Shown here: positions 8,533 through 25,970 of the stretch, in pieces
Position numbering within the stretch: position 1 is the stretch's first letter
How the letters are laid out: each line of letters opens with the position of its first letter
Source: an uncultured Thermoleophilia bacterium
Lineage (GTDB): Bacteria > Actinomycetota > Thermoleophilia > UBA2241
Direction: 5' to 3'
DNA length: 64,000 nucleotides
Assembly: GCA_963715985.1 (NCBI GenBank)
Contig: CAVQSP010000013.1
Coordinates: 576,001-640,000, forward strand
Translations under genes and position numbers: made by a program
Notes under the pieces: model-generated
Told to the model about the DNA's origin: nothing
Seen by the model: only the letters and a program-made list of their open reading frames with translations
Databases searched by the model: none

Positions 8533-9202
8533 GTGACACCAACGACGCAGGCCGCGCGCCGACCGAAGAGGAACTCGCGCGCGCTTTTCAGGATCTCAAG
8601 AACGTCCACGCGATCGACGTGGTCAATGAGCTGCTGGTGAGCCTCTACAGCTTCGCCTCCACCAAGCTCGGTCTGAGTGACGCGACGGCCGAGCTCCGGG
8701 ACCTCGGCGACGCCCACTTCGCCATCGAGGCGTTTGGGGCGTTGCTCAAGGTCGTGGACCGGGAGTTCGGCGAGGTCCAGACGCAGGCACTGCGCGACAC
8801 GCTGGCGCAGCTGCAGCTCGGGTACGTCCAGGCGCTGGACCTGCCGGGCGAGCGGCCGACGGAGCCGGCGGAGGCGGAGCCGGCCGGTGAGCCGGCGGGC
8901 GCGGAGTCGGGCGGCGAGCGCAGCCCCCGGAGGCGCAGGCCGTGCCGGACGCCGAAGGGTCGATGCCGGCGGGCGAAGCGGCACCGGCGGAGGACGAGGA
9001 GCCGGCGGGCGAGGAGGCAGCGGCCGAGGTGGCGCCCGAGATGCCGGAGTCTGAGAGGTCCGCCGCCGGGAAACCGCCGGCCAAGAAGGCTGCGGCGAAG
9101 AAGCCTGCCGCCAAGAAGCCTGCCGCCAAGAAGCCTGCCGCCCGCAAGCCTGCGGCGAAGAAGCCGCCGGTCAAGAAGCCACCGGCGGACCCGGCCGGCT
9201 GA
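8529..9202 (+). CDS. DUF1844-like protein with acidic linker and Lys/Ala/Pro-rich histone-H1-like tail (frameshift ~8910-8940)
   Basis: KLGL...[17 protein letters not shown]...[13 protein letters not shown], then frame 8942..9202 ending [36 protein letters not shown]; 15-bp DNA repeats aagaagcctgccgcc. Confidence 0.7.
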
Positions 9203-9250
9203 GCCGGCGCACGGGCCCCAGGGCTCGCCGGCGTCGCCGGGCGAGCCGCC

Positions 9251-10075
9251 TCACGCGGTGGGCGTGCCGTCCCCCGGGCCCGCCGACCCGCTGACATCTC
9301 CGTACAGTTCCGGGCGGCGGTCGACGAAGTAGGTGTGCCCGCCGCCGTCGCCGGCCCGGACCTCGTCCACCAGGGCCGCGTCGAGGTCCGCGTACAGGAT
9401 CTCGTCACCCGCAGACGCTTCGGCCACCACCGTACCGCGCGGGTCCACGATGCGACTCATGCCCAGGTAGTCGCCGCGCTGGCCCGGCCCCGCGGTGTTG
9501 GCGGCCGCCAGGTAGCAGCCGTTCTCGAGCGCGCGGGAGACCGTGACCGTGCGCCAGATGTGCTCGCGGCGCGCCGCGAAGGCGGACGGCGCGAGCAGGA
9601 GGCGCGCGCCGCGCAGGGCCAGTACGCGCGCGATCTCGGGGAAGCCCAGCTCATAGCAGACCAGCGTGCCGGCCGGCCAGCCGGCGAGCGCGCCGGTCCA
9701 GAAGCCGGAGCCGGGTGCGAACCACTCCTTCTCCACCTGGAAGAGGTGGGTCTTGGCCGCGACGAGCGACGCCTGTCGCGGTCGTAGCACCGCCACGGCG
9801 TTGAGCAGCGCCTCGCCCTGCATCACCGGCAGGCCGAGCACGGCGCTCACGCCGAGCTCGTCCACGGCGGCCTGCAGGCGCGGCAGCGAGCGCCCGGCCT
9901 GCGCGGCCTTGAAGGCCAGCTGCTGGTCGAGCACGTAGCCGCCCAGGTAGAGCTCGGGGAAGAGGACGAGGCCGGCGCCGGCCTCGGCGCACGCCTGTAG
10001 CGTGCTCAGGCAGTGGGCCGCGCGCGCCGGCACCTCGGCGGCCACGTCGCGGACCTGGACGACCGCGAGGCGCAC
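9251..10075 (-). CDS. Carbon-nitrogen hydrolase (nitrilase/amidase family)
   Basis: Start re-called at GTG 10075; E-K-C triad motifs LFPELY, KTHLF, VCYELGFPE; SRALENG; DRRPELYG. Confidence 0.92.
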   Translation of the reverse strand: MRLAVVQVRDVAAEVPARAAHCLSTLQACAEAGAGLVLFPELYLGGYVLDQQLAFKAAQAGRSLPRLQAAVDELGVSAVLGLPVMQGEALLNAVAVLRPRQASLVAAKTHLFQVEKEWFAPGSGFWTGALAGWPAGTLVCYELGFPEIARVLALRGARLLLAPSAFAARREHIWRTVTVSRALENGCYLAAANTAGPGQRGDYLGMSRIVDPRGTVVAEASAGDEILYADLDAALVDEVRAGDGGGHTYFVDRRPELYGDVSGSAGPGDGTPTA

Positions 10076-10079
10076 GCGC

Positions 10080-10748
10080 TCAGGCTCCCGGCAGGCCCCA
10101 GAAGCGGCGCTCGTCCAGCGAGTCGCCGGGCTCCACGACGATGAACTCGTCGTCGTACGGCCCGCCCATGAGCTTCTCGAAGAAGCGCAGCGAGCCGGTG
10201 AGCGGCTCCAGGGGGAGGTCGTAGAAGGCGCACACCTCGTCCAGGTACGCGCGCTTGTCTGCGACACCGGGCACGCCGGGTGTCTCGATCACGGCCACGC
10301 GCGTGTAGTGCTCCATGATCATGCGGGCGACCATGGCCGCCTTCTCCTCGCCGAACTTGGGCACGATCTTCAGGTACTCCTTGTAGGGGTCCTGGATGAA
10401 GTCGATCCACCCGCGCGTGTAGTAGTAGGTGCCGGGCTGGGCGCGGTGCTCGGTGAGGTAGTCCTCGCGCGAGCCCAGGACGAGGGAGATGCAGTCGTCC
10501 ACCGCCGGCAGCACGAGGCGGTGCGGGCCGGCGTCCAGGCCGGCGGCCCCGTTGCTGCAGCGCCCGCAGCACAGCAGGATCTCGCGCTCGCCCTCGGTGT
10601 CGTCGATGCGCTGCTGGATGGCGGCGCGCATCTTGTCCGGGTAGTCGTGCAGCGCGCCCTCGAAGAAGTCGACCTCGTAGCCCGGGTTCACGCACTCCAC
10701 TTCGTTGCGCAGCACTTCGCAGCTGATGATCTTGCGGTGACGGTCCAT
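10080..10748 (-). CDS. DUF1638 domain protein (often associated with corrinoid systems)
   Basis: IISCEVL...GALHDYPDKMRAAIQ...CGRCSNG...DDCISLVLGS...PGTYYYTRGW; likely leaderless (TGcTACCAT-6 nt-ATG). Confidence 0.82.
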   Translation of the reverse strand: MDRHRKIISCEVLRNEVECVNPGYEVDFFEGALHDYPDKMRAAIQQRIDDTEGEREILLCCGRCSNGAAGLDAGPHRLVLPAVDDCISLVLGSREDYLTEHRAQPGTYYYTRGWIDFIQDPYKEYLKIVPKFGEEKAAMVARMIMEHYTRVAVIETPGVPGVADKRAYLDEVCAFYDLPLEPLTGSLRFFEKLMGGPYDDEFIVVEPGDSLDERRFWGLPGA

Positions 10749-17313: not shown

Positions 17314-18520
17314 GTGGACGGGAGCGACCTGCTGCGGCGGCGCCTGCTGCTGGTGCCCGACGGCATGGCCGACGAGCCCCAGGCGGCGCTCGGCGGTCGC
17401 ACGCCGCTGGAGGCGGCGCACACGCCGTTCATGGACGGGCTGGCGCGCGGCGGCGTGGTGGGCCGCGCGCGTACCGTGCCGGAGGGCATGCCGGCCGGCA
17501 GCGACGTGGCCAACCTGGCCGTGCTGGGCTACGACCCGGCGGCCGTGTTCACCGGGCGCAGCCCGCTGGAGGCCGCCAGCATCGGCGTGACGCTCGGCCC
17601 GCACGACGTCGCCTACCGTCTGAACTTCGTCACCGTCAGCGGCGGGGTGATGAAGGACAACACCGCCGGGCACATCCCCGACGACGAGAGCCGCCGCCTC
17701 GTCGCGGCGCTGGCCGATGCGCTGGGCGGCGGCCCCTTCGAGTTCCACCCCGGCGTCAGCTACCGCAACCTCATGGTGTGGCGGGGCGGCGAGCTGGTGC
17801 CGTGCACGCCGCCGCACGACATCCTCGACCGGCCCGTGGCCGGTTGCCTGCCGGGCGAGGCCGCCGGCTGCGGCGGCGCGGACGGCGCCCGCGCGCTCGG
17901 CGACCTGCTGGCGCGCGCCGACGAGGTGCTCGCCGGCCTCCGCCCGGGCACCAGCGCCTGGTTCTGGGGCGAGGGCACGGCGCCGCGCATGCCCGCGTTC
18001 AAGGACCTGTACGGCCTGCGCGGCGCCGTGGTGGCAGCCGTGGACCTGGTGCGCGGCATCGGCCGCCTGGCCGGGATGGACGTGCTCGACGTGCCCGGCG
18101 CCACCGGCGGTCTGGACACCGACTACGGCGCCAAGGCGCGCGCCGCCATCGGCGCCCTCGAGGACCACGACCTCGTGTGGGTGCACGTGGAGGCGCCCGA
18201 CGAGGCCGGTCACATGGGCGACCTGCGCGAGAAGGTGCGCGCCATCGAGCGCGTCGACGCCGAGGTGCTCGGGCCGATCATGCAGTCGGACATGCACCCG
18301 GCGGCGCATGGTGCTGCCCGACCACTACACGCCGCTGGCCACGCGCACGCACTCGGACCCGCCGGTGCCGTTCGTGGTCAGCGAGCCGGCGCCGGGCCTC
18401 GGCGGCGGCGGCGCCATGACGTTCGGCGAGTCGGACGCGGCCGCGACCGGTCTCCTCGTGGACAGCGGACCCGAACTCATGCGGCTCTTTCTGGAGACGA
18501 CGGGGCAGACTTTCGGGTAG
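17314..18520 (+). CDS. apgM: Cofactor-independent phosphoglycerate mutase, ApgM type (frameshift ~18300)
   Basis: PDGMADEP...TPLEAA, GSDVANL..LGYDP, GRSPLEA, HVEAPDEAGH, then in another frame VLPDHYTP..RTHSDPPVPF. Confidence 0.88.
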
Positions 18521-18539: not shown

Positions 18540-20831
18540 ATGACCACGCCACGAGAACAGCCCGAGCGCGCCACAGGCGCGGAGCCCGCACCCGCCCGCG
18601 ACGGGCGCGCCGGCGCGCGCCGCGACATCGTCGCCCCCATGGCGGGGGCTGAACGCCCCGCAGGGCCTGCCGGCGAGCCCGTGGTCACGACGTCGGCCGA
18701 ACGCTACGTGATGAGCGGCGGGCAGGCCGCACGCCTGGTGGTCAAGGAAGGCGACATCTTCCTGTACAGCGACTCCCTCGGCCAGGCGTCGGGGGGCGAG
18801 AACTCGGTGCTCGGCCTGTACTACCAGGACACGCGGTATCTGAGCCGCCTCGAGCTGACCATCGCCGGCCGCAAGCCGGTGCTGCTTTCCTCGACCGCGG
18901 AGCGGGGGTACGCCGCCACCATCGAGCTGACCAACCTCGAGTCGCACACCCCGGACGGCCGCACGCTGCCCCAGGCGACCGTGCACGTGCGGCGTACGCG
19001 CTTCCTCATCCGACTGCGTGCACGAGCACCTGCGCGTGCGCAACTATCAACGCCGTGGACGTGGAGCTGGTGCTGGACCTTCACTTCGACGCCGACTTCG
19101 CCGACCTGTTCGAGGTGCGCGGCCAACGTCGCCGCAGGCGCGGGTCGCGGCTGCCGGACAGGGTCGAGCGCGGACTCACTGGCGCTGCCCTATCTGGGTC
19201 TCGACGAGGTGCCGCGCGAGACGCTGGTGACGTTCACCGACCCGCCGGAGTCGATCAAGCAGGGGCGCGCCCGCTACCGGCTGCGCCTGGCGCCCGGGGA
19301 GCGGGTGACCCTGGCCTTCGACGTGCGCGTGGTGACGCCCGGACGCGCCGGAGTGCCCGAGGACGACGACGCCGGCGTGCGCCTTGCCGCCCTGCGCCGC
19401 GAGCACGAGCGCTGGGACTCGGGCGCCACCGACATCCTCACCGACAACGAGCAGGTCAACAGGGTGCTGCGCCGCGGCCAGGACGACCTGCGCATGCTCT
19501 CCGCGGTGGTCTCCGGGCAGCGGATCCCGCTCTCGGGGCTGCCGTGGTTCGCGGCGCCCATCGGCCGCGAGCTGCTGCTCGTGGGACTGGAGACCCTGCT
19601 GCTGGACCTGCGCTGGGGGCGGGCCGCGGTGGACTTCCTGGGCGGCTTGCAGGGCGCGCAGGAGCGGCCGTACCGCGAGGAACAGCCGGGCAAGATCATG
19701 CACGAGCTGCGGCGCGGAGAGCTGGCCGGCATCAAGGCCATCCCGCACACGCCGTACTACGGCTCCATCGACGCCACGCCGCTCTGGCTGCTGCTGGTCG
19801 CCGAGCTCACCATGTGGACCGGCGATCTGGACGGCTTCGACTACCGCCGCGACGCGGTGGACGCCGCGCTCGCCTGGCTGGACACGTACGGCGACGCGGA
19901 CGGCGACGGCTTCATGGAGTACGGCAAGCGCTCGCGCGCCGGCCTGCGCAACCAGGGCTGGCGCGACGCCGGCGACGCCGTGCTGCACGCTGACGGCACG
20001 CGGGCCGAGGGCCCTATCGCCCTCGCCGAGACGCAGGGCTACGTGTACTACGCCAAGCGGCGCCTCGCGGCCATCTACGGCGAGCTCGGCGACGTGCAGC
20101 GGGCCGAGCGTCTGAGCCTGGAGGCGGCCGAGCTCAAGCGCCGCTTCAACGAGCGCTTCTGGATGGAGGACGAGGAGTTCTTCGCCATGGCTCTGGACGG
20201 CGAGAAGAAGCAGGTCAGGTCCGTGTGCTCGACCATCGGCCACGCCCTGTGGTCGCGCATCGTGGCCGACGAGCACGTGGAGGCCGTCGTGAGGCGGCTC
20301 ATGGCGCAGGACATGTACACCGGCTGGGGCGTGCGCACGTTCAGCAAGGACATGCAGGGGTTCAACCCCATCAGCTTCTACAACGGCAGCGTGTGGCCCT
20401 ACGACACGGCCATCATCGCCAACGGCATGAAGAAGCACGGCTACGTGCAGGAGGCCAACCGCCTCGCCTGGGGGCTCGTGGAAGCTGCGGCCGCGCACGA
20501 GTACGAGCGCCTCCCGGAGATGTTCTGCGGGTTCACGCGGCGCGCCATCAACAAGCCTGTGGCCTTCCCCATGGCGTGCTCGCCGGACGCCGGCGCCGCC
20601 GGCGCGCTCTTCCTCATCCTGCAGAGCATGGTGGGCATCTACGCGCAGGCCGAGGAGAACATCGTGTACGTGCACAACCCGGACCTGCCCAAGTGGCTCG
20701 GCGAGGTCACCCTGAGCAACCTCAAGGTGGGGCGCACCACCATGCGCCTGCGCTTCCGCCGCGAGGGCAGCCAGACCACCTTCGCCGTGCTCGACAAGCA
20801 GGGTCCCGGACGGATCGTGGTGGTGGAGTGA
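18540..20831 (+). CDS. Amylo-alpha-1,6-glucosidase / glycogen-debranching-enzyme-like glycoside hydrolase (compensating indels ~19010-19170)
   Basis: GLYYQDTRYLSRL, (shifted frame) FDADFADLFEVRG, GLPWF, EEQPGKIMHELR, PYYGSIDATPLW, NQGWRD, YNGSVWPYD, RLPEMFCG. Confidence 0.88.
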   Translation: MTTPREQPERATGAEPAPARDGRAGARRDIVAPMAGAERPAGPAGEPVVTTSAERYVMSGGQAARLVVKEGDIFLYSDSLGQASGGENSVLGLYYQDTRYLSRLELTIAGRKPVLLSSTAERGYAATIELTNLESHTPDGRTLPQATVHVRRTRFLIRLRARAPARAQLSTPWTWSWCWTFTSTPTSPTCSRCAANVAAGAGRGCRTGSSADSLALPYLGLDEVPRETLVTFTDPPESIKQGRARYRLRLAPGERVTLAFDVRVVTPGRAGVPEDDDAGVRLAALRREHERWDSGATDILTDNEQVNRVLRRGQDDLRMLSAVVSGQRIPLSGLPWFAAPIGRELLLVGLETLLLDLRWGRAAVDFLGGLQGAQERPYREEQPGKIMHELRRGELAGIKAIPHTPYYGSIDATPLWLLLVAELTMWTGDLDGFDYRRDAVDAALAWLDTYGDADGDGFMEYGKRSRAGLRNQGWRDAGDAVLHADGTRAEGPIALAETQGYVYYAKRRLAAIYGELGDVQRAERLSLEAAELKRRFNERFWMEDEEFFAMALDGEKKQVRSVCSTIGHALWSRIVADEHVEAVVRRLMAQDMYTGWGVRTFSKDMQGFNPISFYNGSVWPYDTAIIANGMKKHGYVQEANRLAWGLVEAAAAHEYERLPEMFCGFTRRAINKPVAFPMACSPDAGAAGALFLILQSMVGIYAQAEENIVYVHNPDLPKWLGEVTLSNLKVGRTTMRLRFRREGSQTTFAVLDKQGPGRIVVVE

Positions 20832-21622
20832 TGAGCGGCGAGCGCCTCACCATCGCCCACATCTCCGACCTGCATGCGGGCTCGCCCTACTTCGTCCCCA
20901 GCCTCATGGACCGCGTGGTGGTGGAGCTCAACGAGCTCGCCCCGGACGTGGTGGTGTGCACCGGCGACCTCACCGAGATGGGCTTCCGCCAGGACTACGT
21001 GCAGGCGCGCGAGTACCTGGAGCGCATCGAATGTCCGCAGCTGGTCGTCATCCCCGGCAACCACGACGCACGCAACGTGGGGTACGTGCACTTCGAGGAG
21101 CTCATCGGGCCGCGCTGGCAGACGCTGCACCTCGACCAGGTGACCATCGTCGCGGAGGACTCCACCGAGCCCGACCTGGATCACGGGCAGATCGGGCGGG
21201 CGCGCTACACGTGGCTGCGCGAGCAGTTCTCGCGCCCGGCCGCGTTCCGCGTGTTCATGCTGCACCACCACCTCCTGCCGGTGCCCGGCACGGGGCGGGA
21301 GCGCAACATCGTCTACGACGCGGGGGACCTGCTCGAAGAGCTGCAGGCCTGCCGCGTGAACCTCGTGCTCTCGGGCCACAAGCACGTGCCCTACGCCTGG
21401 CGGCTGGAGAGCCTCTTCGTGGTCAACGCCGGGACGTGCAGCTCTCTGCGCCTTCGGGGGAACACAAAGGCGTGCTACAACATCGTCCGTCTGGACGGCG
21501 ATACCGTGAACGTAGTGCGCAAGTTCCCGTTCCACGGCACGGAGACGCTCATCGACTTCGTGCCGTCCACGGCGTCGTTCGAGAAGTACGTCTGTCCGGT
21601 GCCCGGGGAGGAGCCGAGATAG
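20831..21622 (+). CDS. Calcineurin-like metallophosphoesterase (CpdA/Icc-like)
   Basis: AHISDLH, TGDLT, PGNHD, MLHHHL, LSGHKH; ATG overlaps the upstream stop (tgatg). Confidence 0.92.
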   Translation: MSGERLTIAHISDLHAGSPYFVPSLMDRVVVELNELAPDVVVCTGDLTEMGFRQDYVQAREYLERIECPQLVVIPGNHDARNVGYVHFEELIGPRWQTLHLDQVTIVAEDSTEPDLDHGQIGRARYTWLREQFSRPAAFRVFMLHHHLLPVPGTGRERNIVYDAGDLLEELQACRVNLVLSGHKHVPYAWRLESLFVVNAGTCSSLRLRGNTKACYNIVRLDGDTVNVVRKFPFHGTETLIDFVPSTASFEKYVCPVPGEEPR

Positions 21623-23116
21623 AAGCAGAAGCTCCCGCGCGCCGTGGTCCTCGTGGACGGCGAGCACTACCCGCCGGTGGTGGCCGCCGCCCTCGAAGGG
21701 CTGCGGCGGCGGTACCAGTCGTGGTCGCCGGGCTGTTCGCCGGCGGGCGCGAGAAGCTGCGCGGCGGCGAGGGCGAGGCGCTCGGCGGCCTCGCCGCCGA
21801 GCTCGGGCTGTCCGCGCCTCGACGCCGTCGACCCCGTGCGGGGCGACTCCGGCCGAGACCTTGGACGCCACGCGGGCGGCCTGCGCGCGGCGCGCGCCGC
21901 GGTGCTCGTGGACCTCTCGGACGAGCCGGTGGTGGGGTACCGCGAGCGCTTCCTCCTGATGAGCGCCGCGCTCGCCGAGGGCGCGCGCTACGAGGCCGCC
22001 GACACGGAGGTGCGGCCGCAGGAGTTCGCGCGCCTCGGGCGCCATGCCGGCGCTCGTGCGTGCTCGGCACCGGCAAGCGCGTCGGCAAGACCGCCGTGAG
22101 CGGCTGGCTGGCGCGGCGTCTGGACGCCGCCCTGCGGGAGCAGCGGCGGCGTGATCGTCGTGGCCATGGGCCGCGGCGGGCCGCCGGAGCCGGAGCTCGT
22201 GCCGGGCCGCGACGGGCTCGGCGTGGCCGAGCTGCTCGCGGCCTCGCGCCGCGGCCGGCACGCCGCCAGCGACTGCTACGAGGACGCGGTGCTCGCCGGC
22301 GTGCCTGCCGTCGGCTGTCGCCGCTGCGGCGGCGGCCTGGCCGGGGCGCCGTTCGACGACACCGTGCGCGCCGCCCTGCCGCTGGTGGAGGCGAGCGGCG
22401 CCGCGCTCGCCGTCGTGGAGGGCAGCGGCGCCGTGGTGCCGCCGGTGGCCTGCGACGCGACCCTGTGCGTGTCCGGCGCCGCCCAGCCGCCCGAGTACGT
22501 GGTCGGCCTGCTCGGCACGTACCGGCTGCTGCTCAGCGACGCGCTCGTGCTCACGCAGTGCGAGCCGCCCTTCGCCGACGAGGCGGGCGTGGCCGCGCTG
22601 GCCGCGGCGGCCCGCGCCGTGCGACCCGGCCTGCGCGTGGTGCCCACCGTGTTCCGGCCACGGCCGGCGCAGCCCGTGCGCGGGCGTCGGGTGGCCTTCT
22701 TCACCACCGCGCCGGAGGCCGCCGTGCCGCGGCTCGCGCAGGCGCTCGCCGAGGACCACGGCGCCGAGGTCGTGCTCGTCTCCACCGACCTCGCCGACCG
22801 CGCCCGGCTCGCGCCCGCCGTGGCGCGCGCCGCCCGCGAGGCCGACGTCTTCCTCTGCGAGATCAAGGCCGCGGCCGTGGACGTGGTCGCCGAAGGCGCC
22901 GAGGCGGCCGGCCGCGAGCTCGTGTTCTGCGACAACGAGCCGGTCTCGCTCGGCCCGGACCTCGGCGGGGTCGTGGACGAGCTGGCCGCGCTGGCCGCGG
23001 AGCGCTTCGCCGCCCGCGGCCCCACCCGCGGCCCCGCCGGCGGCACCTCCGCGCGGCCCCGCCGGCGAGCGCCACACGCCCGGCCACCTACGGGGGAGGT
23101 GCGCGATGGACGGTGA
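21620..23116 (+). CDS. cpgS: Cyclic 2,3-diphosphoglycerate synthetase (split by several indels; start approximate)
   Basis: Stitched motifs: LVDGEHYPPVV, FAGGREKL, DLSDEPVV..RERF, GTGKRVGKTAVSG, VAMGRGGPPEP, HAASDCYEDA, GCRRCGGGLAG, EGSG, CEIKAAAVDVV, FCDNEP, matching archaeal CpgS as I know it. Confidence 0.88.
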
Positions 23117-24019
23117 CGCAGACGTGCGCCTCATCGACCCGGACGACCCGGCCCCGTTCAGCAAAGGCCTGATGGCGCAGACGCTGATGGCCACCGGCCT
23201 CGCGCCCGAGCACGCGTATCTGGTGGCGGCCGCCGTGGAGCGGCGCCTGCGGCGCCAGGGTGCGGCGGCCCTCACCCTCGCCGACCTTCACGAGATCGCC
23301 TGCGAGGAGCTCGGGCAGCTCGAGGGCGACACGCTCATCCAGCGCTTCCGCCAGTGGCAGAAGCTGCGCCGTCTCGAGACGCCGCTCATCGTGCTCATCG
23401 GCGGCGCCACCGGCGTCGGCAAGAGCACGCTCGCCACCGAGCTCGCGCACCGTCTCGGCATCACCCGCGTGATCAGCACCGACATGGTCCGCCAGACCAT
23501 GCGCGCCTTCTTCGCCGCCCGAGCTGATGCCGGCCATCCACACGTCCTCGTTCGACGCCTCCGCGGCCGTGCGCGTGCCCATGCCGCGCGACACCGACCT
23601 CACCAGGGTCGGGTTCATCGAGCAGACCAAAGCCATCAGCGTGGGCATCGAGGCGATCGTGCAGCGCGGCATCGACGAGGGGCAGCAGATGGTGGTGGAG
23701 GGTGTGCACCTGGTGCCGGGGTTCCTCGACCGCGCGCGCTGGGGCGAGGCCATCGTGCTCGAGTTCGTGCTGGCCGTGGGCGACAGGACCAGACACCGCG
23801 GCAACTTCACCGTGCGCGACTGGGAGACGGGCGGCCTGCGCCCGCTGCAGCGCTACGTGGAGCACTTCGCCGAGATCCGCCGCATCCAGAAGTACATCGT
23901 GGGAAGGGCGGAGGCCCAGGGCGTACCCGTGGTGGACGCGCCGAGCCTCGACGAGAGCCTCAGTGAGGTGCTCGGCACCATCCTGCACCGCGTGGAGGAG
24001 TGGCAGACCCGCCGGCTGA
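23106..24019 (+). CDS. pgk2: 2-phosphoglycerate kinase (ATP-cone plus P-loop); frameshift ~23520, stop position uncertain
   Basis: PFSKGLMAQTL..TG, LIGGATGVGKSTLATELAHRLGITRVISTDMVR, PAIHTSSF, EAIVQRGIDEG..MVVEGVHLVPGF, YVEHFAEIRRIQKYI. Confidence 0.88.
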
Positions 24020-24274
24020 ACCGTCTGCGGTCGCGGTCCACGCAATCGGGTATACTCAAGTCACTCCCCTTCCGGTCGCTCATCCGCGCGACGTCCCGTG
24101 ACGTGAGGCCCGGAGAAATCTGCAGTAGGAATCTCTTGCACGGTGTGACATACTCTGCTCCGGAGTCCGCACGGACCCCGCCCTTCATCACAGCATCCAC
24201 CTCTACTCGTTCGACATCTCCCGCACGTACTGGCTGCGAGCCGCGTGGGGCGATGTCAGAGGTCTCGGGAGCCC

Positions 24275-25970
24275 ATGGACACTGACGAACAGACAGATCA
24301 GACGACCGTACCCACCACGCCCGCCGTGCCGTCCATGGAGACGGCACCCGCAGGCGCCCGTAGCGACCAAGCCGGCCCGCAAGCCGTCCGCGCGCAAGAC
24401 CGCGGCGGCGGCCGCCGCCAACGGCGACGGCGCCGACACGGCCTCCGCCGACCGAGCCGGCCGCCGGCCGCCGCGCCGGAGCCCCGCCGTCGAGCCCCGG
24501 CCACGCCGCCTGCCGGCGACTCGCTCCGGCCACCGCCCCCGAGGCGCTGCCGGTCAGCGCGGCCCCGCGCGCAGCTTGCCGCGCGCCGACGCCCCTGCGT
24601 TTGCAGGCGCGCCCGCCGAGACGGCCACGTCCACCATCGAGGCGCCGTCGGCTCCACCGGCCGAGGGCGGCGCGTCTGACGCCCCGCCCACCTCCGCCGA
24701 CGGCGACGGCGACCGCTACGGCGGCCAGCAACGTCCGGGCCAACAGGGTCAGCAGGGCCAGCAGCGCCAGCAGGGCAAAGGCAAGAACCGCCGCGGCCGC
24801 GACAAGCAGCGCCAGGGCGGCGGTGGCGGCGGTGGCGAGCAGGTGCGCGACGACCGCCCGTCCATCCCGTGTACCGGCATCCTCGACGTGCTCCCGGACG
24901 GTTTCGGGTTCCTGCGCACCAACGGGTTCACGCAGGGCGACCGCGACGTCTACGTGTCGCTCAGCCAGATCCGCCGCTTCGGCCTGCGCCGCGGCGACGA
25001 GATCCTCGGCCAGGTGCGCGAGCCCAAGGACAACGAGAAGTACAACGCGCTGCTCAAGATCGACATGGTCAACGGGGTCGACCCGGACACGGCGCGCAAG
25101 CGCCCGCTGTTCGAGCAGCTCACGCCGCTGTACCCCGAGGAGCGTCTGCGTCTGGAGACCGAGGAGCACGACACCGCGGCGCGCATCATGGACCTGCTGT
25201 GCCCCGTCGGCAAGGGCCAGCGCGGGCTCATCGTCTCGCCGCCCAAGGCGGGCAAGACCACCATCCTCAAGAAGCTGGCCAACTCCATCGCCGTCAACAA
25301 CCCCGACGTGGACCTCTTCGTGCTGCTCGTGGACGAGCGCCCGGAGGAAGTCACCGACATGGAGCGCTCGGTGGTCGGCACCGTGGTGTCCAGCACCTTC
25401 GACCAGCCCAGCGAGAACCACGTCCAGGTCACCGAGCTGGTGCTGGACCGCGTCAAGCGCCTCGTCGAGATGGGCCGCGACGTCGTCGTGCTGCTCGACT
25501 CCATCACGCGCATGGCGCGCGCCTTCAACCTCAACACGCCGGCCAGCGGCCGCATCCTCTCGGGCGGCGTGGACAGCACGGCGCTGTACCCGCCCAAGAA
25601 GTTCTTCGGGGCCGCCCGCAACATCGAGGAGGGCGGCTCGCTCACCATCCTCGCCACGGCGCTGGTGGACACCGGCTCCCGCATGGACGAGGTCATCTTC
25701 GAGGAGTTCAAGGGCACCGGCAACCTCGAGATCCGCCTGGACAGGCGGCTCGCCGACAAGCGCATCTTCCCGGCCATCGACATCGAGATGACCGGCACGC
25801 GCAAGGAGGAGCTGCTCATGGAGCCCGCCGAGGCGGCCGCCGTGTGGAAGCTCCGCGGCGTGCTGCACAGCCTCGAGCCGTCGGCGGCCATCGAGCTGCT
25901 CATCAAGAAGGTCCGCGAGACCAAGAGCAACGCCGAGTTCCTCAGCGCGCTGCAGAAGAACTCGCGCTAG
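24275..25970 (+). CDS. rho: Transcription termination factor Rho with long low-complexity N-terminus (indels in the N-terminal part)
   Basis: [70 protein letters not shown]. Confidence 0.96.

Follow-up and report, generated by a model that had tools for sequence, protein, structure and literature searches.

A conserved phosphoesterase-cpgS-2pgk gene trio upstream of rho in Thermoleophilia, with a predicted role in cyclic 2,3-diphosphoglycerate metabolism

In a 64,000 nucleotide (nt) stretch of the genome of an uncultured Thermoleophilia bacterium (hereafter the window; contig C13, positions 576001-640000), three genes lie directly upstream of rho. They encode a metallophosphoesterase (PE), a homologue of cyclic 2,3-diphosphoglycerate (cDPG) synthetase (CpgS) and a member of the 2-phosphoglycerate kinase (2PGK) family. 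The genome comprises 4.35 Mb in 22 contigs, with a completeness of 88.8% and a contamination of 7.3%. An initial annotation, made by reading the sequence, had described an archaeal-type pair of cDPG biosynthesis genes at this location; the gene identities proposed there were upheld, and the pair is really a trio that includes PE. We consider it probable that this trio is native, vertically inherited and operon-like, that the indels interrupting two of its genes in the window are consensus errors, and that its products would sustain a make-and-break cycle for cDPG. Synthesis of cDPG by this bacterium, as predicted from gene content and homology, is well supported but unproven.

Identity of the cpgS and 2pgk genes

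All six CpgS motifs quoted in the initial annotation are present in plus-strand translations of positions 21500-24350. DGEHYP, MGRGGP, HAASD, GCRRCGGG and EIKAAAVD occur in the frame starting at 21644, and GTGKRVGKT occurs in a shifted frame near 22070-22100. A 321-amino acid (aa) piece encoded by 22151-23116 matches the structures of the Methanothermus fervidus cDPG synthetase (PDB 8ORU and 8ORK; E 1.1e-59, 206 bits) and a third CpgS entry, 9SXB (E 2.2e-49). Furthermore, an intact relative of the window protein (P0002, 88% identical) aligns to residues 33-446 of 8ORK with 290 bits, and the window pieces tile a second intact relative, P0003, from residue 1 to residue 481, so that similarity to the characterised enzyme is nearly full-length.

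The residues that bind 2,3-diphosphoglycerate (2,3-DPG), Mg2+ and ADP in the M. fervidus enzyme include, in the accessible text of its structural description, E45, K46 (partner subunit), K145, R146, K149, T150 (P-loop), D208, E305, P335, T353, E404 and K406 (PMC10690619). The window translations carry equivalents of E45, K46, K145, R146, K149, T150, D208, E305, T353, E404 and K406, those outside the P-loop falling in the motifs GGREKL, HAASD, QCEPP, FFTTAP and CEIKAAAVD. A set of 111 full-length bacterial homologues was made up of 102 of the 120 listed database matches (at least 440 aa) and nine loci; each of these 11 residues is kept in all 111 or in 110 of them. P335 could not be placed by numbering, and the local VFRPxP motif is conserved. 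GTGKRVGKT, which holds the equivalents of K145, R146, K149 and T150, was scored as the Walker A motif (GxxGxGK[T/S]).

Scans of the CpgS pieces and of P0002 with Pfam and NCBIfam returned no family, and our local copies of these collections seemingly hold no CpgS model; in precomputed annotation, most full-length homologues carry PF27272. A DUF1611/LpxK-type reading of CpgS, which the initial annotation had named as a competitor, was rejected: DUF1611 reached 19 bits (E 8e-4) in one relative only, against 206-290 bits for CpgS.

The C-terminal tail of CpgS is rich in Arg, Pro and Gly and varies in length and sequence among relatives, with a repeated tail in P0001. In the window this tail contains a window-only insertion of 20 nt (23059-23078). 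The length is not a multiple of three, and the insertion may be an assembly artefact or may alter the reading of the tail.

The two halves of 2pgk (23106 to about 23516 and 23527 to about 24000) match the NCBIfam 2PGK models NF008994 and NF003259 with E values of 1e-38 to 1e-43, as expected for the 2-phosphoglycerate kinase gene originally proposed. On NF003259 the halves score 132.4 and 136.1 bits. Intact copies from related loci score 292.7 bits (L006; model positions 14-299 of 306, P-loop present) and 300.0 bits (L027). For the intact relative, the two 2PGK models reach 292.7 and 303 bits, compared with 145.6 bits for NF008995 and 80.5 bits for mevalonate-3-phosphate 5-kinase, such that the 2PGK family leads paralogous models by about 150 bits. 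No solved structure matched 2PGK at E ≤0.001. By these scores the window gene belongs to the COG2074-type family of 2PGK homologues, its best family, and is not a certified equivalog, for which the NCBI cut-off is 343 bits.

Conservation of the trio and its predicted pathway

We compared 38 related loci around cpgS. Their records are labelled Thermoleophilia (17), Actinomycetota (9), 'Actinomycetes' (4), Rubrobacter or Rubrobacteraceae (4), and Coriobacteriia, Acidobacteria, 'archaeon' and Deltaproteobacteria (one each); the closest relatives are mostly metagenome-assembled genomes (MAGs) named 'Thermoleophilia bacterium'. Rubrobacter homologues, which the initial annotation had mentioned, are present as MAG records. 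The gene immediately upstream of cpgS is PE in 36 of the 38 loci, and the remaining two begin inside or beside cpgS. In 30 loci 2pgk follows cpgS directly, either adjoining it or overlapping with it; of the eight others, five end within cpgS and three are of the Rubrobacter type. In four of four Rubrobacter-type genomes (G001-G004) a 2PGK homologue is encoded on a different contig from cpgS. With rho downstream in 29 loci, the gene order of the window is kept in most of them.

In other lineages, genes of gluconeogenesis or the pentose-phosphate pathway occupy the interval that separates the cDPG genes from rho. The two Rubrobacter-type MAG loci whose ORFs were scanned carry glpX (class II fructose-bisphosphatase) between cpgS and rho in place of 2pgk (L032, 2938-3975; L033, 5751-6797), and a Coriobacteriia MAG has a fructose-6-phosphate aldolase/transaldolase gene between the cDPG genes and rho (L027, 7801-8463; TIGR00875, 257 bits).

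The three genes are also inherited together. Among 301 genomes of the class (G000 included), matches were found to CpgS in 172 (E limit 1e-10), to 2PGK in 173 (1e-20) and to PE in 175 (1e-30). By family, genomes with CpgS, 2PGK and PE number 45, 45 and 45 of 55 in f1; 49, 49 and 49 of 52 in f3; 51, 51 and 50 of 55 in f4; and 21, 22 and 24 of 24 in f6. All three are absent from the 56 genomes of f2 and the 26 of f7, and the corresponding counts in f5 are 0, 0 and 1 of 23. The family-level presence or absence of CpgS and 2PGK is identical over the 301 genomes except for one additional weak 2PGK match. The surplus PE matches of f5 and f6, at E 1e-68 to 1e-72, fall far short of nearly all others (about 1e-94 or better) and probably represent a paralogue. 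A direct search for PE in five genomes without cpgS found it in none of them.

Within the genus of the window organism, the same 10 of 36 sampled genomes (G007, G013, G019, G043, G055, G079, G103, G115, G191 and G286; completeness 77-100%) lack PE, cpgS and 2pgk. These congeners tend to have smaller genomes than the carriers (1.7-2.9 Mb compared with 2.4-4.4 Mb), which suggests that the whole module was lost during genome reduction. Where the genes are retained, they are under purifying selection: among eight intact relatives (28 pairs for each gene), dN/dS has a median of 0.18 in PE, 0.16 in 2pgk and, over the C-terminal part of the gene, 0.19 in cpgS. Vertical inheritance across the class indicates that the window genes are native, and is a stronger argument for this than the host-like codon usage cited in the initial annotation.

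To look farther afield, we used a profile of the Thermococcus/Asgard-like clade to find 80 metagenome loci around diverse cpgS genes, 44 of which have adequate flanks (at least 2.5 kb upstream and at least 3.5 kb downstream). Both PE and 2pgk are near cpgS in 29 of the 80 loci (16 of the 44 with adequate flanks), 2pgk only in 11 (7), PE only in 1 (1) and neither in 39 (20). Where both genes are present (29 loci), rho accompanies them in 14, always with the order PE-cpgS-2pgk; of the 15 loci that lack rho, 10 have the order cpgS-2pgk-PE. One locus with this second order (L048) has genes for an archaeal-type WtpABC tungstate transporter adjacent to it, scoring above equivalog cut-offs. Its PE (8674-10194) has 506 aa and two Metallophos stretches, compared with about 263 aa for the bacterial protein, indicating that the domain is duplicated or extended. 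The only match to this PE in the genome of the window organism is the window PE (E 2e-53, 44% identity). Linkage of PE that is kept across domains despite a changed gene order points to a functional tie, and the many cpgS loci without PE show that the tie is not obligatory.

The assignment of PE to the metallophosphoesterases is secure, as its Metallophos score lies far above the gathering cut-off of 21.5 bits, and DxH, GD, GNHD and GHxH metal-binding motifs are visible by eye in its translation. Among proteins of solved structure, those closest to it are Rv0805/Icc, a cyclic-nucleotide phosphodiesterase (E 2e-11), and GpdQ, a glycerophosphodiesterase (E 1e-6). A search of the ESM Atlas with PE recovered only clusters named 'Actinomycetota metallophosphoesterase', and LpxG appeared as a weak NCBIfam match in a family scan of relatives of the trio locus. 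The calcineurin-like superfamily includes hydrolases of pyrophosphate bonds, for example LpxH/LpxG and ApaH. A cDPG hydrolase activity is on record in an archaeon: the accessible text of a review, citing Van Alebeek 1994 and Sastry 1992, describes hydrolysis of cDPG to 2,3-DPG and 3-phosphoglycerate (3-PG); the hydrolase of Methanothermobacter thermautotrophicus, its gene unnamed, is given as membrane-bound and as sensitive to inhibition by K+ and Pi (PMC1224877). Our literature search on cDPG hydrolase returned this review alone, and in its accessible text we found no gene named for the activity.

These observations suggest the following pathway. The 2PGK-family kinase would convert 2-phosphoglycerate and ATP to 2,3-DPG, as predicted from homology. 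CpgS would then cyclise 2,3-DPG to cDPG in an ATP-dependent, intramolecular closure of a pyrophosphate ring, as does the M. fervidus enzyme. The initial annotation had claimed that the complete two-step route to cDPG is present, and CpgS similarity, the ligand residues, 2PGK-family membership and co-inheritance all speak for it. The co-inherited PE would most likely supply the return arm, opening cDPG or dephosphorylating 2,3-DPG, and we put it forward tentatively as a candidate cDPG hydrolase. The trio would then form a cycle that both fills and drains a pool of phosphate, energy or stress protectant, and would not provide a thermoprotectant alone.

A different role for intact homologues is unlikely in our judgement. 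The substrate of CpgS might be some other vicinal diphosphate, or the enzyme might work chiefly in the reverse, ATP-making direction, the kinase might use another substrate, and PE might be an unrelated cyclic nucleotide monophosphate (cNMP) phosphodiesterase. The bacterial 2PGK, at 292.7 bits, falls short of its equivalog cut-off and belongs to a kinase family with other substrates, mevalonate-3-phosphate 5-kinase being an example (80 bits); the solved proteins closest to PE act on cNMPs or glycerophosphodiesters; and the carriers are mostly mesophilic. Moreover, the M. fervidus CpgS is reported to be reversible in the accessible text of PMC1224877. Against such roles, the 2,3-DPG-binding residues E45, K46, K145 and R146 are invariant or nearly so in the 111 bacterial homologues, and the overlap of cpgS and 2pgk together with their tight co-inheritance is what a two-step pathway predicts. 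The same cpgS-2pgk pairing is found in Thermococcales.

Several further points weigh against a bacterial cDPG cycle. The case for it consists of genes and homology, and populations nearly identical to the window organism live in wetland, where the need for a thermoprotectant is not obvious. To our knowledge, NMR surveys of Rubrobacter solutes have not reported cDPG, although the strains surveyed may lack the genes. The 2PGK family also has matches in Thermus, Deinococcus, Methanocaldococcus jannaschii, Haloferax and Sulfolobus (5 of 14 control genomes), and we know of no cDPG production in Thermus, Deinococcus, Haloferax or Sulfolobus. A 2PGK homologue is thus not diagnostic by itself, and the assignment made here leans on linkage with cpgS. 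The accessible text of PMC1274311 names 2PGK (COG2074) among the archaeal-type genes of Thermus and Deinococcus. Linkage of PE is not constant either, as 20 of the 44 loci with adequate flanks have neither PE nor 2pgk. Finally, the M. thermautotrophicus hydrolase, the only cDPG hydrolase described, which turns cDPG into 2,3-DPG and so passes carbon and phosphate to gluconeogenesis, has the activity proposed for PE; it is membrane-bound, whereas PE looks soluble, with no membrane segment evident by eye.

Frameshifts and layout of the window locus

That frameshifts hide both cDPG genes from a listing of open reading frames (ORFs) had been noted from the start, and comparison with relatives and wetland contigs places seven indels in cpgS and two in 2pgk (Table 1). 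Indels were called by DNA alignment against 10 relatives, counting changes found only in the window; the one near 24000 was seen against the wetland contigs. We regard clustered consensus errors as a very likely cause of these breaks. The genes would then be intact in the living organism, and the nine indels would stem from a noisy, probably long-read, metagenome assembly.

Three Logan contig sets were informative (X1, X2 and X4), the last of which lacks coverage of most indel sites in cpgS. Mapping of raw Illumina reads from run X21 placed 0 reads on the locus, and no RNA data set was listed among the matches to the stretch. Contigs of X1 and X2, both public wetland-metagenome runs, are 97-98% identical to the window and omit window bases at 21717 (two bases), 21810, 21838, 22036, 22055, 23515/23517 and 24000, as well as at intergenic position 21629. 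These omissions correspond to indels called by alignment; none at 22141 is among the differences listed. The eight cpgS pieces fall in order along P0003, with 422 of 473 aligned residues identical (89%) and no stops. One piece of 51 aa is identical to P0003 throughout, and one piece of six residues was placed by eye. No window-only indels occur in PE (777 nt, compared with nine relatives) or in the rho core (1107 nt), and breaks of the same style are found in other relatives on long contigs (L021, L024, L031 and L038).

What tells against intact genes is that the window copy is broken as assembled and that the comparison contigs, being 97-98% identical, are not provably from the same strain. 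The indels could be real if the module is on its way out of this lineage, having already gone from 10 of the 36 sampled genomes in its genus. Nine indels within about 2.4 kb, flanked by a PE gene and a rho core that have none, would fit such pseudogenes, as would the 2-3% of bases at which the comparison contigs differ. We nevertheless consider decay improbable. The pieces are 89% identical to the intact relative and stop-free in their correct frames, whereas real decay that had produced nine indels would be expected to add substitutions and stops. Furthermore, the cpgS indels total +6, which restores the frame downstream, comparable clusters of window-only indels occur in the upstream gene, and PE is intact here, although elsewhere it disappears along with cpgS and 2pgk.

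Table 1. Genes of the locus and window-only indels
Feature	Position in window	Strand	Remarks
Metallophosphoesterase (PE), first gene of the trio	20831..21622	+	Pfam Metallophos 66.4 bits, Metallophos_2 51 bits
cpgS, cDPG synthetase homologue	21644..23116	+	PDB 8ORU/8ORK match; 8 pieces, 7 small indels
2pgk, 2-phosphoglycerate kinase-family gene	23106..24019	+	NCBIfam NF003259, NF008994; split by 2 indels
rho, transcription termination factor (downstream neighbour, context only)	24576..25970	+	Rho_RNA_bind 109 bits, ATP-synt_ab 75 bits
Indel in cpgS	21716		+2
Indel in cpgS	21811		+1
Indel in cpgS	21832		+1
Indel in cpgS	21880		-1
Indel in cpgS	22036		+1
Indel in cpgS	22057		+1
Indel in cpgS	22141		+1
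Indel in 2pgk	23517		+1
Indel in 2pgk	near 24000		+1; seen against wetland contigs

The genes of the trio are tightly packed. The ATG of PE overlaps the stop codon of the upstream ORF (TGATG), cpgS starts 22 nt past the PE stop, and the 2pgk ATG lies 11 nt within the 3' end of cpgS, preceded by a ribosome-binding-like run (GGGGGAGG). The overlap of cpgS and 2pgk and their position upstream of rho are as originally described, and the end coordinate assigned to the pair, 24019, is indeed the 2pgk stop once the extra base near 24000 is discounted. The GC content is 0.75-0.81 in cpgS and 0.68-0.73 in the flanks. A scan of 20300-24900 yielded no promoter-like site and no plus-strand terminator, and is uninformative at such GC content.

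About 550 nt separate the 2pgk stop from the listed rho start (24019-24576), and in relatives about 0.8 kb precede the conserved Rho core. The gap probably encodes an extended N-terminus of Rho with low sequence complexity, and translation of rho may in fact begin upstream of 24576. On the other side of the trio, the plus-strand ORF at 18540-20831 (763 aa as listed) belongs to a gene in which comparison with nine relatives shows another cluster of indels of 1-2 bp confined to the window, near 17892, 18306, 19008, 19057, 19172, 19336 and 19353; part of the listed 763-aa translation is therefore out of frame.

Distribution beyond the class and comparison with known systems

The window genes are not new, a possibility that the initial annotation had allowed for. 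Among 8,000 scored candidates, 6,323 public protein clusters match CpgS at E ≤1e-5, and thousands of bacterial homologues are already named CpgS by NCBI and the Joint Genome Institute (JGI): many carry the NCBI name '2,3-diphosphoglycerate synthetase [Thermoleophilia bacterium]' or the JGI name 'cyclic 2,3-diphosphoglycerate synthetase'. Clustering at 50% reduces the family to 182 representatives (E ≤1e-30). Twenty of the 150 listed representatives were looked up, and the named members include Asgard archaea, Thermococcus, Cloacimonadota, Acidimicrobiia and cultured Streptomyces. Most named records are environmental MAGs; for the Rubrobacter and Coriobacteriia carriers, all organism-named records among the best 120 matches per search are MAGs.

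When the phylum was sampled evenly, CpgS matches (E ≤1e-30) appeared in 227 of 401 genomes, or 213 of 387 when 14 unpublished genomes are set aside. On this genomic evidence CpgS is a common and largely vertically inherited trait of Actinomycetota, and the part of the initial description that called the genes archaeal-type is a historical label. A quick CpgS tree (64 full-length sequences of the 150 listed representatives plus 9 labelled ones, SH-aLRT support only, midpoint root) leaves 28 of 70 forks open, and we use it to name neither a donor nor the direction of any transfer.

One related record (L023) is labelled 'uncultured archaeon' and has the bacterial gene order PE-cpgS-2pgk-rho; since it encodes Rho, the label is probably a misclassification. 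That the segment was recently transferred from archaea, or is archaeal DNA binned in error, might be suggested by this label and by the first characterisation of the enzymes in archaea, yet it is extremely unlikely given that the genes are flanked by conserved bacterial neighbours including rho, that their order is kept in most related loci, and that they occur in most families of the class and in the majority of the sampled phylum genomes noted above.

The literature places cDPG elsewhere. The accessible text of De Rose et al. (2023; PMC10690619) states that cDPG is exclusive to hyperthermophilic methanogens, and that of a study of ammonia-oxidising archaea counts cDPG synthetase among the traits that point to thermophilic ancestry (PMC7554672). 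Our literature searches, which did not extend to subscription journals or supplementary files, found no report of cDPG in bacteria in the text they could reach; the listed papers on the synthetase, judged by title and abstract, concern archaea or are general reviews of extremophiles, and several of those listed for cDPG deal with the physiology of red cells or haemoglobin. The genome data, with CpgS in 172 of 301 class and 227 of 401 phylum genomes, extend the genetic capacity for cDPG beyond those methanogens. Taken alone the window is of modest interest, holding an ordinary, already annotated family member damaged by assembly errors; the wider pattern is that a majority of the genomes sampled from a phylum of mainly mesophiles carry CpgS, with a conserved kinase-synthetase-phosphoesterase trio.

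A more speculative possibility is that cDPG is widespread in the metabolism of mesophilic Actinomycetota from soil and wetland, where a dedicated cycle of 2PGK, CpgS and PE (as cDPG hydrolase or 2,3-DPG phosphatase) would form and degrade it, and that the pool would act as a phosphate or energy buffer or as a protectant against desiccation or oxidative stress. If so, cpgS would be weakened as a genomic marker of thermophily. Should bacteria make cDPG, this industrially interesting extremolyte would gain easy, aerobic and mesophilic sources, its physiological role would need rethinking, and the conserved PE would be a directly testable candidate for the degradative enzyme.

Compared with known systems, the window CpgS family resembles the M. 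fervidus enzyme in its size (about 450-480 aa), in having an N-terminal domain followed by a P-loop core, and in its GTGKRxGKT Walker A motif. It differs in a variable insertion after GGxEKL and in its variable Arg/Pro/Gly-rich C-terminal tail. The host, in contrast to M. fervidus, is a high-GC and apparently mesophilic bacterium, and the window cpgS overlaps 2pgk and sits behind a phosphoesterase gene. PE shares the calcineurin-like fold family of the class III cyclic-nucleotide phosphodiesterase Rv0805/Icc and of GpdQ, with which its similarity is distant; it forms an orthologous group of its own that is 60-88% identical across the class and travels with cpgS-2pgk. The bacterial 2PGK is similar over the full model length to the M. 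fervidus and other archaeal enzymes (NF003259/PRK04220, COG2074), and scores 292.7 bits compared with 410.1 bits, above the 343-bit cut-off, for the Thermococcales-like copy of L048. In Thermococcales, too, the kinase gene adjoins cpgS, and in Pyrococcus yayanosii the cDPG genes are described, in the accessible text of PMC4890121, as adjacent and regulated by pressure.

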